From Calcarisporiella thermophila CBS 279.70 (taxonomy: Eukaryota; Fungi; Calcarisporiellomycota), in the NCBI RefSeq assembly GCF_041956535.1, contig NW_027192203.1:617406-681405 (forward strand): a stretch of 64,000 nucleotides of DNA. The letters are read 5' to 3'. The notes beneath the pieces are model-generated. The model had not been told where the DNA came from. It searched no databases and saw only the letters and a list, made by a program, of their open reading frames with translations. Every line of letters begins with the position of its first letter. The stretch's first letter is position 1. The position numbers and the translations under genes are program-made. Below are positions 28,737 to 46,227 of the stretch, piece by piece.

Positions 28737-31357
28737 GGAGGCTTGTTGATTGACGCTCCTTCTCGTCTTCTTCACCTTTCACTGCCTCAACAAAATTAGG
28801 GCAACCGATTAGTGGGATAAAAAGGGGAGTAAGGGGAAATGGGAGGCGAATGGGGGGGTATTGATTGGTCGTGATGTAGTAGCAATGGGGTGGTCACAAG
28901 GAGAACGATGTAGCAATAACGGCAAGAAGCTAATGTCAAAGTAGATCATCCACCCAATTTTGGTATGTCCTATTCGCGGTTGTCTGTCGACGGATATACA
29001 GGAGAAGAAGGAGCAAAAATTCTCTGCGGAATGAGGAAGGGAGAACCGTTTTAAGGAAACCCCCTCTACGCAGCGCGTTTAATTGAAACCTAAGTGTGGC
29101 TTGCGCGAACAGAATTGTCATTTTTCTCATTTATTTACTTGGGTAGCGAGGACCCAAAAATATCTGGCTCCAATTTTTCCTCTCCATGGTCGAGGTGAAA
29201 AAAAAGGGAGGGGCCCGCGGCAAACAATAAAATGCAAAGAAGGGAGCAAAGGGAAGCTTTCGACGGTCTGTCTTCATCGCCCCCATATTTGTTTTATTAT
29301 GCCTGTGTAAAAACGGGCATGATCCCCGTAGAGCGTAAGGCCAGATAGATTAGCCATCCTACAGTCTATATGTGATCCAGAGATGTAAACATTTCAATGT
29401 CTGCGTTTTTATCGGCGTTGATGCATTTATTCGACCAATTTGGAGTATTCTAGCCTACATGCAGTAATCGCAAATGAATCTATGCATATTTTGAAGTGGT
29501 TCACTTTGATCTTTTTAAAAAAGAGAGGGTGGATTGGATACCTAGGTTAGGTTACCACTTCCTAAAAAGTATATACGCAAAAATGGGTTCCTTATCTGTT
29601 TAACCTAGGGTAAGTTCTAATTAATAAAAAGATATTCCAGCTTCCAAGTGTAGTAATTTGACATACCGACCCTGGGGCCCATCCAAACTAACACTGAGCT
29701 TTCGTGGTGGTGATAGAAGTGTAAAGTAGTCTCAGAGTTACTGGGATCCAGTGCAGGCCCACACTTACTCAGAAAAGTCGGGGTAGGTTTATTCGAAGTG
29801 AAGGATGACTCTATAACTGATAAACGTTCTCAATAGGGGCCTAAAAGCCACCAGCTAATAAAGCCCTCTAGCCATTCACCATACCTAACGGGATAATCTT
29901 CTAGCTTGGCATAAATTCTATTCAATCCAAAAAGAGTTTAAAAGGAACATAGCTTTCATGCAGGGAAGGATTATCGAGGTGGATAGCGCTTAGGGCTTTT
30001 GAAGTCCAAAAAAAAAAAATGCAACTTATCGGATCAAAGCTATGGGCGCAATAGTCAGTTCACCTCCAAATCGACTCAGAAGTAAGATAGATTCTCTCGC
30101 AGCATCTCTTTGTGCGCTTCCTCTTGGCAGTAATCATATCAAGAATATTCCGGGAGGAAACTCAAATCCAAGTAGAAATGCCACACTGGGATTATCGATG
30201 CGTTGAAAGGTTGTTCCCCATCCCTGATAGAGTAGGATTTTCCTGAAGACAATGTCGTGATTTTCAGCCTTAAACAAGTTATAGCTTTAGTACTTGGGGT
30301 CAGGAACCCACACAAAATCCTTCGGGATCAATCAAGGCAATATCCACCGTGCAAAGTGGCGCTTGACCAAGCGCCGTTAAAGTAGCTCAAGAGTAGAAAC
30401 TAGTATTTAAAACGACTGCACTTGGGCAATGAAGCAGCTCAGCGGAAGTAAGCTTAAATAATTGCCGCCTCTTTTACAGTTGCATCCAGACTTTGAACCT
30501 GAGAACCGAAAATCACCTTGGTTTGATACGGTAGGTAAATAATCCAGTGGCAGTGAAAGGAAGTTAATAGAATCGTAAGTTAGTCGTCTTTGCCAACGAA
30601 ATATAGACTACACTTCTTGCACCATGGCATCATCCAACGTGTTTCCGATATATTCTCCTCCTCCTTAACATTACATCCATATATATTGGGCTATGCATAG
30701 AAAAAACTTTAATCCCCTTTTATTTAATTTGCGTTACTGTTTAACTATTTTATGTAGATTTGCTGGAAGGTTAACTAAATCAATTATCATATTATACACA
30801 ACATCCAGTATTAAAAATATTATGCAACTGACTGCTTTTTCATTCGGTCATTACATAAAATATCTAAGGTTAATGTCAACTCAAAACATATGAGTTGAGG
30901 TGTGAGTGGGGCTTATATTTTAAAAGAAATTCTTGCTGAAGTATAGGTATACTATATCCATGGAGGCGAAGTTTTTCCCTGTGGCTATGAATAATAGCTT
31001 TCGTCACCTACCGCATTTGATTTTGATCGATCTTGATTTCCTTATTTTGCGATATGCGCCTTGCTTCTTTTAAAAATGTTTCTCAATTTTTACATTCTCC
31101 GATTCTGGTCACATTTGATAGTAGGCGAGAGGCACTTTACAGATACTAAATCAGAAAAAAAAGAGGAGAGTCAAATCATCCGTTCTATATCTCCTCATTC
31201 CCTTCTTTTGGCTGAATTGAACTGTTTTATCGTCTTTCATTACTTCTCTAACTTATTGCTGTTCTTGTAGTTTCATTTTCAATTTTTATTTTCTTATCAA
31301 AGTGGCGACTTGTACCTACATTCATTCCAAATTCATCTATTCAATCCCATTTCCAAA

Positions 31358-33619
31358 ATGCTCCAGTTAGTGCACCACGAACAACAACAGCGAAAGCCTA
31401 AAGATAGCGCCCACATCAAGCAGAAATTTGGGCGGAAATTCGCCTTCCCTCATGTGTATGTCAAACATGTAGAACATGTTAACCCCGAGGAAGAAGAAGA
31501 TTGGCAACTGAAGACTCCCCCCAAAACCCCCGAGCTACCCCCTGGTGGGGAGGAGGAACTGCCCAGCAAAGAATTCATCGTCGCAGTAAAGGTTCAGGAT
31601 AAAGAGAGAGAGGTAATTGATAATAAAAAGGAGGAATTGAAACTGGAGTTTGTTCCCGCACTGGTCGCTTTTTTGGACCGAGACAAAACCGTCATTTCTT
31701 CTCTATCCAAAGAGTTCGAGAAGTTGGCCAATGAAGAGATCCACAACCAGCACCGTTGGCGCCTACAGACAGCGGCACGTCAGCTTGCCACGCTACTCAG
31801 TCCAACCGAAGAGTTTGATGCTGGAAGAATCAGGAATATTGTGTTCAACATAGGGCGAGAACACGCGGCTCACCGAATCATTGAAATTACAGGCCACTTT
31901 TTGGACTCCATAAAGAGAGAGGAGAGAATTGAGGGTGAAATGGAGTTTGAGCTCGCCAAAGAGGCCTACTGGGATAGACCAAGCGATATGATGAGTTTAT
32001 TGAGAGTGCATCGAGCGGCATGCATCATCGAACATGGAGTAGGCGAAGTATGGACAAAGGGGTGGGTTGTTGGCGTGGGGGCCAGTGAACTCTGTCAAGA
32101 GGACCGCACACAGGCTGCTCAAAACTTACAAAGGCTCCGTGTCACTCTCAACCGTCTCTCTCCACTGATCCAAAGGCTTTCTGCTGAAAGTGCTCATAAG
32201 CTTCTTCTTCACACAATGGAAGCCGAACCCGTGACCTCCATTGGAGGGACCCCTCTCTACGTAGATTCTGTGCACATACAAACTCAAGTGTATAAGGCAT
32301 TGAGCGATTTCGTTAAAAACGAGGAGAGGGCGATGACTCTGGACTTTGCACACGCAGTTGCTCAGATGGGGGCAGTGCGCAAGCTTATCCATGAAAATGA
32401 GCTGTGCTACGCTTGGGAGAAAGCGGGACATGCGGTGAAAAAGTTTATTCTGAATCCGGATCCGATCTTGAGGGCAAAGGCTGTTTCTCGCTTGAAGCAA
32501 GTAATTGAGGCTCTTCCTTTAGTGAAGAATATAGCTCTTGCAGAGGAGAAAATATCTTCTCTTGTTCCGTCCAATCGAGGGAAGATGCGGGAGGGCGGTA
32601 TACGCGCAGTACAAAGCGAAATCAATTCCGTAGTTGAAGCGCTGGTGACCTCGATCCAAAAGACAGGAAAATTACAGTACAACTATTGTCCGCTTACACT
32701 TCTGACCGCGAGCAGCGAAGCTGGCATCATTGCTGACTCATGGACCCAACTTTGCGATTCCATTGAGAATTTATTTGCCTATGCGGTGCAAGCCAGAGAT
32801 AACCGAGGAGTGAGGCAAACTCTAGGGGACGCCAAGGCGCAAGTAATGGACCTTCTCCACTCTGTAAGCCTTGCATTCACAAGCCCTAGCTTGAAAGGCC
32901 AGCCGTGCAGCATCTCCTATGCAGCGGTGGGCGCATTGTACCAGCTTTTGAACGAGGCCGATCACTTTATCCCAGGGGGCGAGAACTATCGCGCTGCAGC
33001 TGAAGGCATACGTAGCGCAAAACTTATGCTTGAATCCCCTACGGAGGGCTGGGCAGGCCGTGATCGAAGTAGAATCTTTAATGTCGAGAGGGTCGAGAAA
33101 AGTCTTATCGAGGCAACAGATGACTTGCGTATTGCTGTATCGAAGAGAGACCGCGGTGTGGCCATCCAATGTGCCGCAGAAGCTGCTCTAGCGTGCAGGG
33201 ATATCACTCATTCGACCTTGCTCACCCTTTCCCACCACCCTTCCCTTGGCTCCGATCACGACACACTGAATGCAGTGCACGGATGCCCTCAAAAAACTAA
33301 GGTGGAGAATATACGTCTACTTGAAGAGGTTCAATCTGCTTTGGACGCGGTGTTCACCTGGCTCCAGGAGGAGCCCTCGCACCCCATTCGTGCCAAATCG
33401 GTCGAACATTCTGCCACCTGGACGTCGAGGGCATGCCAGCGTTGGTCGCGACAATTTAAATCCATTGGCGCAGAAAAGACGTGGGGTTTAAAGCAAGTAG
33501 GGGTTGTAAGAGTGGATAGAATGCAGGAAAACTACAACGAGAGGGGTTGGAGTTTTATTGTAGGGTGCAAGGAGAAGCGAGAAAGTGAAGTGCGGACACT
33601 TACTGCTACCGCTTTTTGA
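31358..33619 (+). CDS. Intronless 753-aa helical-bundle protein resembling the central talin rod
   Basis: Long amphipathic helices with LP/PG-type bundle junctions (EALPLVKNIALA; YQLLNEADHFIPGGENYRAAAEGIRSAKLMLESP), collinear with my recollection of talin R4-R7. No FERM or I/LWEQ domain. Confidence 0.6.
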   Translation: MLQLVHHEQQQRKPKDSAHIKQKFGRKFAFPHVYVKHVEHVNPEEEEDWQLKTPPKTPELPPGGEEELPSKEFIVAVKVQDKEREVIDNKKEELKLEFVPALVAFLDRDKTVISSLSKEFEKLANEEIHNQHRWRLQTAARQLATLLSPTEEFDAGRIRNIVFNIGREHAAHRIIEITGHFLDSIKREERIEGEMEFELAKEAYWDRPSDMMSLLRVHRAACIIEHGVGEVWTKGWVVGVGASELCQEDRTQAAQNLQRLRVTLNRLSPLIQRLSAESAHKLLLHTMEAEPVTSIGGTPLYVDSVHIQTQVYKALSDFVKNEERAMTLDFAHAVAQMGAVRKLIHENELCYAWEKAGHAVKKFILNPDPILRAKAVSRLKQVIEALPLVKNIALAEEKISSLVPSNRGKMREGGIRAVQSEINSVVEALVTSIQKTGKLQYNYCPLTLLTASSEAGIIADSWTQLCDSIENLFAYAVQARDNRGVRQTLGDAKAQVMDLLHSVSLAFTSPSLKGQPCSISYAAVGALYQLLNEADHFIPGGENYRAAAEGIRSAKLMLESPTEGWAGRDRSRIFNVERVEKSLIEATDDLRIAVSKRDRGVAIQCAAEAALACRDITHSTLLTLSHHPSLGSDHDTLNAVHGCPQKTKVENIRLLEEVQSALDAVFTWLQEEPSHPIRAKSVEHSATWTSRACQRWSRQFKSIGAEKTWGLKQVGVVRVDRMQENYNERGWSFIVGCKEKRESEVRTLTATAF

Positions 33620-44087: not shown

Positions 44088-44456
44088 TTAAATATTCACT
44101 TCCTCCATCCCTGGCCAAGGACATTGTCCATTCACTTTATTAAAGCATGAATAATAGCTACCCTCGTTTTTCCAACAAGGTGCGCAATTCTTAGTGCATG
44201 CCGGAACACTTTGCATGTTGCCTGGTCTACAGCTCGTTTTGCCTTCACTTGAATTTCTATCCCACATACCACTCCAAGGGCACCTCCCTTCGAGTGTATA
44301 ATCATAACAATCGTATTTGTTTCCATTTTTAAGCCAACACGGCGGACAGTTCGATACACCAGTACAAAGAGTACCCGTATTGCCCCGATCACAACTGTTC
44401 GGAAGCTGACCACTGACTACCGAGAGCGCAATGAAAACTAGGGGTAAAAAATGCAT
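44088..44456 (-). CDS. Small secreted cysteine-rich protein, two tandem 6-Cys repeats
   Basis: 122 aa, hydrophobic signal peptide MHFLPLVFIALSVVSG, 12 Cys; repeat consensus C-x8/10-C-x3/5-CxPCW-x8-C-x7/8-CPWxGM. Confidence 0.85.
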   Translation of the reverse strand: MHFLPLVFIALSVVSGQLPNSCDRGNTGTLCTGVSNCPPCWLKNGNKYDCYDYTLEGRCPWSGMWDRNSSEGKTSCRPGNMQSVPACTKNCAPCWKNEGSYYSCFNKVNGQCPWPGMEEVNI

Positions 44457-45050: not shown

Positions 45051-46124
45051 TTAAAGGGTCGCAGTATAATGAATGGGATAATCTAAAGAGAAGTTTCCGG
45101 ATTAGCTTTCAGATTCGGTATCAATGCCAAAGACAAGCAAATATTGAATAAACTTACGATCGGAATAGTCGTCATAGGTTTTTCCCTTAATTTCGTATGG
45201 CTTCATCTTTACCTTCAACACAGTTTGTTTGCTTCCAGACTTAACTCCTCCCTTGGCGATCAGCACATGGTCAAGGATAGCACTGGCTCCATTGGGGTCT
45301 CTTTCGTTTGCGATTGTGTTCGTCTTCACATCATAACTCAGCGGCCACCCATCAAAAGTATCGGCGCCCTTTGCCCCAAGAATGCTCAACATATCGTTGT
45401 ACTCGCTCGAGGATTTATCCACATTCATATCCCCGATGACAAATACAGGTTCATTGGCAGGCAACGTGTCGACGAATTGGCGAATCTCGCGGAATTGAGT
45501 GGCGCGTACACTCTTCTCACTTCCACTGCAGCCACCGTCGTCCGCCTGCGTGTGGGTTCCGATCACGTGGAGCGGCTGGTTGGTCCCCATATCAAGTCTC
45601 ACGTAAGCAAATCCTTTGTTAGCCGTGTTATCAGTACCGCAGCCTTTGGCGAACACATGCTGCCTCTTCTCAACAATCCGATGCTTCGATGCGATGAACA
45701 CGCCCCCGCTAGCTGGACACAGACTGCACCAGCTTCCAGTCGTCGCATTCCAGTCCTTCTTCGACCGACCCGTCACAGGAGTCTGATATGGGTATCCATA
45801 CTTGGCCAAGTTCCCTTGCAGGGGATCCGTCACAGACTGCTCGAATGCCTCCTGGAAAACTAGCACATCGTGATCCTTGATAAAGTCGGCGGGAGCTCCG
45901 ATTGCTTCTGCGCGTAAGTTCTGTCCCCAGTTCGGATATATGTTTTTGTAGAAAAGAAAGGTGTTGAAGGAGAGAATACTTAGTGATTTGGAGGTGTCTA
46001 GGCTCTTGTTGGAGGCTTTCAGTTTCTGGAGGCCGCGCTTTCGAGCGGTGAGGCCATCGTGGGGAAAGGCTGCGAGCGCGAAACCAGTGAGAGTCAGGAG
46101 AGCAGAAAAGAGTGAAAGTTTCAT
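45051..46124 (-). CDS. Secreted bacterial-type neutral sphingomyelinase C (EEP superfamily; Bacillus SMase / Staphylococcus beta-toxin family), 2 exons
   Basis: Signal peptide; YPNWGQ..RA..I, DVLVFQEAF, YPYQTPVTGRS, FAKGCGTD..ANKGFAY, HVIGTHTQA, GDMNV, LDHV. Intron 45083-45157 restores DYSDHYPI; TAA at 45051-45053. Confidence 0.93.
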
Positions 46125-46220: not shown

Positions 46221-46227
46221 ATTTATA
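46221..46227 (-). promoter_or_regulatory. TATA box of the sphingomyelinase gene
   Basis: TATAAAT on the minus strand about 100 bp upstream of the ATG at 46124, followed by a pyrimidine-rich leader. Confidence 0.5.

Follow-up and report, generated by a model that had tools for sequence, protein, structure and literature searches.

Bacterial-type sphingomyelinase C (SMase C) is regarded as a bacterial enzyme and a virulence factor, and Isc1, nSMase1 and nSMase2 are membrane-anchored intracellular enzymes. No description of a bacterial-type SMase C in fungi was found in the literature searched, a body that leaves most subscription papers outside its scope; databases already label many members of the family considered here "sphingomyelin phosphodiesterase". 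A 2026 survey (PMC13161914) files two Actinomortierella members under SMPD2/3, and in the portions of that paper available only opisthokont sequences are named as tree inputs and the word "horizontal" is absent. Because no bacterial sequences are among these stated inputs, its counts and history for SMPD2/3 likely mix two origins.

The gene described here lies in a window of 64,000 nucleotides (the whole stretch of DNA that was analysed) from Calcarisporiella thermophila. It belongs to a resident SMase C gene family, with predicted secretion of the products, that is spread over three fungal phyla and has the oil-producing Mortierellaceae and the animal-associated Basidiobolus among its carriers. 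The preferred reading, with a probability of roughly 0.55, is that the gene encodes an intact secreted SMase C, gained from bacteria long ago, which digests sphingomyelin-type lipids as food rather than lysing hosts.

Gene structure and genomic setting

The sphingomyelinase gene occupies positions 46124-45051 on the minus strand, with its ATG at 46124 and a TAA stop at 45053-45051. The frame is open from 46124 to 45159 (322 codons), and this stretch forms exon 1 together with the single base 45158. The features, in window coordinates, are as follows:

46222..46227, minus strand: candidate TATA box (TATAAA), 103 nt upstream of the ATG
46071..46124, minus strand: residues 1-18, with Lys, a hydrophobic core and Ala-x-Ala, a signal peptide as predicted from visual inspection and hydropathy
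46035..46070, minus strand: residues 19-30, predicted to be a short propeptide with a Kex2-type Lys-Arg site at its end
45158..46124, minus strand: exon 1, 322 codons plus base 1 of the His323 codon; alone it scores 259.5 bits against the TIGR03395 cut-off of 248.2
45849..45851, minus strand: Glu92, which aligns with E53, the central metal ligand in B. cereus SMase
45552..45554, minus strand: His191, equivalent of catalytic H151, from the alignment
45423..45431, minus strand: Asp232 and Asn234, equivalents of D195 and N197, from the alignment
45174..45197, minus strand: C-terminal beta-hairpin, short and with no aromatic tip, its strands predicted at 310-312 and 315-317
45083..45157, minus strand: predicted spliceosomal intron, 75 nt, phase 1, within the His323 codon
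45051..45082, minus strand: coding part of exon 2, 32 nt, comprising the remainder of the His323 codon (H296 equivalent), 9 codons and the stop

The predicted intron has a GTAAGT donor, a TAG acceptor preceded by a pyrimidine run, a GC content of 35% and a branch-like CTAAT (45105-45101) 23 nt before its end. When 90 GT..AG pairs near the 3' end were tried, only the 45157/45083 pair brought SDH[YF]P into frame, and the public gene model P0002 (332 amino acids, 100% identity), itself a prediction, has the same splice junction. Removal of the intron, predicted from these strong splice signals, would rebuild the His323 codon. The sequence-only reading had placed a 75-nt GT-AG intron inside the catalytic His codon, split as C|AT, and had held that unspliced transcripts lack this residue; the sequence bears out both statements. 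With the intron retained, the frame runs to an internal stop (an in-frame TAA lies at 45104-45102) and yields a 340-residue product without the final His. The neighbouring Nas2-like gene contains three apparent introns of comparable size, about 63-78 nt.

The N-terminus of the protein is a short hydrophobic stretch, and by hydropathy no further hydrophobic 19-mer is present. The product would be directed into the secretory path, with cleavage of its short propeptide. A hydrophobic N-terminus is likewise found in all 16 fungal copies checked.

The protein is identical to C. thermophila VTP21DRAFT_2202 (332 amino acids), which is encoded on a public contig of 833,637 nt and has a C-terminal end that agrees with the spliced reading. 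The neighbouring genes are eukaryotic (FIT/Scs3, MscS-like, Nas2-like, ZIP, V-ATPase d, aldehyde dehydrogenase and Sey1), and a Pfam family was matched in each of the eight flanking ORFs scanned. The GC3 of 0.59 is within the range of 10 in-frame window ORFs (0.39-0.85, one wrong-strand row excluded), and the codon score of 0.029 is within that of 13 window ORFs (-0.040 to 0.156). Bacterial contamination, against which the sequence-only reading had also argued, is rejected because of the eukaryotic neighbours and the host-like composition and codon use; the intron signals and a paralog on another large contig likewise rule it out.

Directly downstream of the sphingomyelinase gene, on the same minus strand, is a Cys-rich ORF of about 122 amino acids (44088-44456) with a signal-peptide-like start and two units of the Cys-Pro-Cys-Trp...Cys-Pro-Trp type. 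It has no Pfam match, and its best Atlas score is 0.76, a lead at most; its product is a candidate secreted effector or lectin-like peptide. A long intronless ORF on the plus strand (31271-33619, 782 codons from stop to stop) is helical-looking.

Family assignment, fungal relatives and origin

The protein exceeds the equivalog cut-off of TIGR03395 (sphingomyelinase C) with 272.8 against 248.2 bits (E 3.3e-81). All seven PDB matches at E < 0.001 are bacterial sphingomyelinases C, and human nSMase2 reaches only E 0.033. A profile built from 20 aligned sequences, 18 of them named as fungal, matches the seven bacterial PDB sequences with E values of 1e-108 to 1e-118, compared to 6e-9 for human nSMase2 and 2e-8 for nSMase1. 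These values uphold the proposal that the enzyme is of the bacterial SMase C type and not of the Isc1/nSMase type, and all of the motifs on which the sequence-only reading relied are found in the translation.

The catalytic and metal residues N54, E92, H191, D232, N234, D285, D322 and H323 are all kept, with the presence of H323 resting on the predicted splice. In B. cereus SMase, N16, E53, H151, D195, N197, D295 and H296 correspond to N54, E92, H191, D232, N234, D322 and H323, a numbering verified on a Bacillus luti locus. The AlphaFold2 model has a pLDDT of 88, with residues 1-41 mostly of low confidence, and shows a DNase-I-type fold that matches 7cne at a Foldseek E of 5e-41. Solved SMase C structures align to it with TM scores of 0.90-0.94 by target and, for the top entries, rmsd values of 1.2-1.9 Å, compared to TM scores of 0.54-0.57 for the human nSMases. 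The gene product is a bacterial-type SMase C, and would hydrolyse sphingomyelin in a Mg2+-dependent manner. By analogy with the enzymes of B. cereus, S. aureus, L. ivanovii and S. griseocarneus, the DNase-I-fold site would bind Mg2+ via Glu92, and His191 and His323 would split sphingomyelin into ceramide and phosphocholine.

A search with the fungal profile returned 1167 proteins, and among the 120 matches listed at least 31 are named as fungal. They come from Calcarisporiella (two proteins), from about ten genera of Mortierellaceae and from Basidiobolus ranarum. The Calcarisporiella paralog, VTP21DRAFT_4044, is on another large contig, and several copies occur in Actinomortierella and other Mortierellaceae. 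An Olpidium bornovanus copy lies on a 2,273-nt contig and scores 216 bits, under the TIGR03395 cut-off. A region search for further fungal lineages with the Basidiobolus C-terminus gave 53 candidates and added only B. meristosporus. No Mucorales, Glomeromycotina, chytrid, Dikarya, animal or plant names are among the matches listed (the best 120 of 1167). The VTP21DRAFT_4044, Mortierellaceae, B. ranarum, B. meristosporus and Olpidium copies resemble the protein studied here in their match to TIGR03395, their hydrophobic N-termini and, mostly, their short hairpin. A Gln at position 300 is present in all six fungal lineages compared and in one of 63 presumed-bacterial rows. Outside the fungi, a relative is encoded in about 528 stretches of bacterial and archaeal species genomes, and many non-pathogenic soil actinobacteria are among the carriers.

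Several relatives have peculiarities of their own. The public model of VTP21DRAFT_4044 (P0003) apparently starts about 85 residues too early, with signal-peptide-like sequence from Met86. A Dissophora globulifera protein on a 2.5-kb contig (P0191) is likely inactive or repurposed because three central catalytic residues are changed. A sphingomyelinase from 1.1-kb contigs that look very AT-rich (P0169, with P0364-P0367 in its cluster) has the fungal Gln at position 300. In the ingroup tree it has a long branch and falls with the fungi; it may represent a further eukaryotic lineage.

Introns are distributed differently among the relatives. Six of 80 metagenome loci are Mortierellaceae-like, and the five that include the 5' half are interrupted at three common positions by gaps of about 90-160 nt, mostly with donor- and acceptor-like ends. 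In these loci (L057, L060, L067, L077 and L080) the three positions are shared even between divergent paralogs, so these introns likely predate the duplications. None of the three is present in the C. thermophila gene, and the last catalytic motif is uninterrupted in all five Mortierellaceae-like loci that reach it; separate intron gains are therefore likely. A hint in the opposite direction comes from two versions of one Actinomortierella ambigua protein (P0143 and P0362): one diverges just before the Asp-His pair, as it would if an intron in the Asp codon, a single codon upstream of the C. thermophila intron, had been left unspliced, so that the two introns may be a near pair.

The sequence-only reading had attached significance to the position of the intron in the His codon, and this is not sustained. 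Any retained intron with an internal stop would have a comparable effect, and the site is intron-free in the five related loci; intron retention as a switch is not supported. The chance of a random intron falling in one of about eight core residues among 332 codons is, by rough estimate, a few per hundred, which is common genome-wide. The placement inside the His codon is likely incidental.

The origin of the gene was addressed with trees that contained no native eukaryotic nSMase (Isc1, SMPD2 or SMPD3). In a rooted 62-row tree, for which 31 of 93 rows were set aside because they were near-copies, incomplete or too long, all 14 fungal rows fall together (83/40) as the sister of 42 presumed-bacterial SMase C rows. 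The branch joining the bacteria in this tree is weak (81/56), which makes the placement of the root tentative. In a 49-row tree, from which the distant outgroup and 15 more rows were removed and to which two were added, the fungi plus one AT-rich row are split from 36 presumed-bacterial rows with 85/85 and in 259 of 300 bootstrap trees; the fungi without that row form one side in only 32 of 300. A FastTree analysis of all 93 rows requires two changes of the fungal label.

Within the fungal group, Basidiobolus is placed with the Mortierellaceae (98/94) and Calcarisporiella with Olpidium (97/66), an arrangement at odds with the species order. The expected grouping of Calcarisporiella with the Mortierellaceae clade is not rejected by the AU test (p 0.372). 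Neither Firmicutes (p 0.127) nor the actinobacterial group (p 0.423) is rejected as the partner of Calcarisporiella, and no specific bacterial donor is established.

A bacterial origin of the fungal gene is very probable, and the chances that it entered fungi in a single old event are about even. A transfer from bacteria long ago is likely because relatives occur in several early fungal lineages. The proposal of an old horizontal transfer in the sequence-only reading thus holds as to age and the exclusion of contamination; in the trees the gene is nested in neither the Bacillus/Staphylococcus nor the Streptomyces groups, next to which the fungi form a weak group (83/40). Alternatively, the family might be an old eukaryotic lineage or one passed from fungi to bacteria, with no transfer into fungi, or the copy might have drifted to another substrate. 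The rooted tree, where the 42 presumed-bacterial SMase C rows that were sampled together form the sister of the fungal group and do not enclose it, speaks for this, as do the placement of members in eukaryotic SMPD2/3 by the 2026 survey, in the portions available (PMC13161914), and a top Atlas feature match to an ascomycete EEP cluster (0.96), a lead only. However, identity to the closest bacterial rows (42-49%) is as high as that to other fungal lineages (43-47%), compared to 16-19% for human nSMases; the outgroup loci checked are intronless with closely packed ORFs; and the matches listed comprise no animal, plant or Dikarya name while about 528 bacterial and archaeal genome stretches encode a relative. 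This alternative is considered very improbable.

With transfer from bacteria as the preferred reading, the intron was likely gained after the gene's entry into fungi. In the parts available of a survey of bacterial genes in early-diverging fungi (PMC11291939), intron gain after transfer is common, as proposed here. The table in that survey, so far as it is available, contains two EEP xenologs, both cytosolic and from gut fungi, and no sphingomyelinase, though B. meristosporus was in the set. Transfer from bacterium to fungus followed by intron gain is a well-known type of event, and the present case is a specialist finding without a new mechanism.

Membrane-binding features and possible roles

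In B. cereus SMase and related toxins, an aromatic hairpin tip and an edge metal site drive liposome binding, haemolysis and, for the B. cereus enzyme, erythrocyte binding, according to the parts available of PMC9710629, which cites Ago 2006 and Oda 2012. In the Bacillus, Staphylococcus, Carnobacterium and Baia rows that are named, and in the main Streptomyces rows, the hairpin segment is 17 residues long and contains 3-6 aromatics. Of 20 fungal rows, 16 have a segment of only 13 residues, the C. thermophila protein included. The short form is not confined to fungi: 21 of the 64 remaining rows show it, and they include a second actinobacterial type. The best PDB sequence match of the C. thermophila protein is 3i5v, an engineered hairpin-shortened beta-toxin.

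The edge metal site retains one of its four residues in the C. thermophila protein. At its position, both Calcarisporiella copies and the Olpidium copy, alone among fungal copies, have a Cys-x-x-Cys loop, in which a disulphide is likely from the sequence. The same source (PMC9710629), as far as available, describes the edge metal site as variable among staphylococci too, and reports sphingomyelin hydrolysis by a metagenomic enzyme even though its apex residues are non-aromatic. The short non-aromatic hairpin and the eroded edge site would likely give weak binding to intact membranes.

These features bear on the role of the enzyme. In the available parts of PMC10079182, C. thermophila is a saprobe, sister to other Mucoromycotina, and is without CotH. 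The sequence-only reading had suggested beta-toxin-type action on host membranes, and this finds little favour with two membrane-binding features of the toxins missing or eroded in a fungus described as a saprobe. It had also assumed that fungi generally make no sphingomyelin, which conflicts with the sphingomyelin synthase homologs reported across non-Dikarya fungi and the sphingomyelin found in Umbelopsis (PMC13161914 and PMC10629195, in the parts available). Since non-Dikarya fungi have such synthases, animal prey is not the sole possible source of substrate, which could equally come from dead animal matter, from other early-diverging fungi or from the surface of the fungus itself.

Because the membrane-gripping parts of the toxins are absent, a role in lipid feeding is likelier than attack on hosts. 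This nutritional role is suggested by the lifestyle of the fungus and by the features that the protein lacks: lipid from dead animals, microfauna and other early-diverging fungi would provide phosphorus, nitrogen and carbon. Two observations count against it, namely that the Cys-x-x-Cys loop at the edge-site position of the protein and its paralog could give another kind of membrane grip, and that Basidiobolus, also a carrier, inhabits and infects animals.

It is possible, if unlikely, that the protein is a secreted cytolysin or antagonist directed at living cells with sphingomyelin-rich membranes, whether those of animals, of protists or of early-diverging fungi that compete with it. Such a role would agree with the family and active site shared with haemolytic Staphylococcus, Bacillus and Listeria enzymes, the predicted secretion, the retention of the gene in animal-associated Basidiobolus, and the multiple copies in Actinomortierella and other Mortierellaceae. 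It sits less well with the distribution of the family in many non-pathogenic soil actinobacteria, with a saprobic host without CotH invasins (PMC10079182, in the parts available), and with the missing aromatic tip and the single remaining edge residue of four, both of which matter for erythrocyte binding in the available text of PMC9710629.

Remodelling of the fungus's own cell-surface sphingolipids, with ceramide made in growth, sporulation or heat stress, is quite unlikely. The carrier lineages are non-Dikarya, and non-Dikarya fungi keep and express sphingomyelin synthase homologs, with sphingomyelin present in Umbelopsis (PMC13161914 and PMC10629195, as far as available). However, the protein has no membrane anchor, the available parts of PMC13161914 place acid sphingomyelinases and Isc1/SMPD-type enzymes in these fungi already, and no Mucorales copy is among the best 120 matches listed, though Mucorales have the synthase.

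The odds are somewhat against a more elaborate scenario. It would have one bacterial SMase C enter before the split of Olpidium from the non-flagellated land fungi and give rise to a so far unrecognised subfamily in fungi, made up of secreted enzymes with a short hairpin, which Olpidium, Basidiobolus, Mortierellaceae and Calcarisporiella would have retained while other fungi lost it. With these enzymes early land fungi could have fed on animals and fungal competitors that contain sphingomyelin, or attacked them, and in the Calcarisporiella/Olpidium branch the edge metal site would have been replaced by the disulphide loop.

Comparison with characterized sphingomyelinases

The human enzymes nSMase1/SMPD2 (8j2f) and nSMase2/SMPD3 (5uvg) and yeast Isc1 have the EEP/DNase-I fold and the catalytic core in common with the fungal protein. 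The resemblance of the human enzymes is distant, with 16-19% identity and TM scores of 0.54-0.57. Unlike Isc1, SMPD2 and SMPD3, the fungal protein has no hydrophobic segment beyond the N-terminus and no anchor.

The B. cereus SMase (2ddr), S. aureus beta-toxin/Hlb (3i41) and L. ivanovii SmcL (1zwx) have the same fold and all of the central catalytic and metal residues, with 39-41% identity to the fungal protein in structural alignment. The fungal hairpin is four residues shorter than in these toxins and is without an aromatic tip, and one of the four edge residues is kept. The Bacillus, Staphylococcus and Listeria enzymes never grouped with the fungal protein in the trees built, though a forced grouping is not rejected (p-AU 0.127). 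A special tie to B. cereus and S. aureus, as first proposed, is therefore not supported: the best bacterial matches are from Streptomyces, and the trees nest the gene in neither group. The fungal proteins offer natural short-hairpin enzymes with which to study SMase C without the membrane anchor of the toxins.

The top Foldseek match is Streptomyces griseocarneus SMase C (PDB 7cne), with a TM score of 0.93 by target, an rmsd of 1.5 Å and 43% identity, and Streptomyces proteins are the best bacterial sequence matches, at 47% identity. The actinobacterial SMase C is also a secreted single-domain enzyme from a soil saprotroph, with secretion of the fungal protein being predicted. The main Streptomyces type has a long aromatic hairpin, whereas that of the second actinobacterial type is short, as in the fungal protein. 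The fungal gene differs from that of S. griseocarneus in its intron, its Cys-x-x-Cys loop and an extra C-terminal strand, and the Asp preceding the last His, present in the fungal protein, is absent from 7cne.
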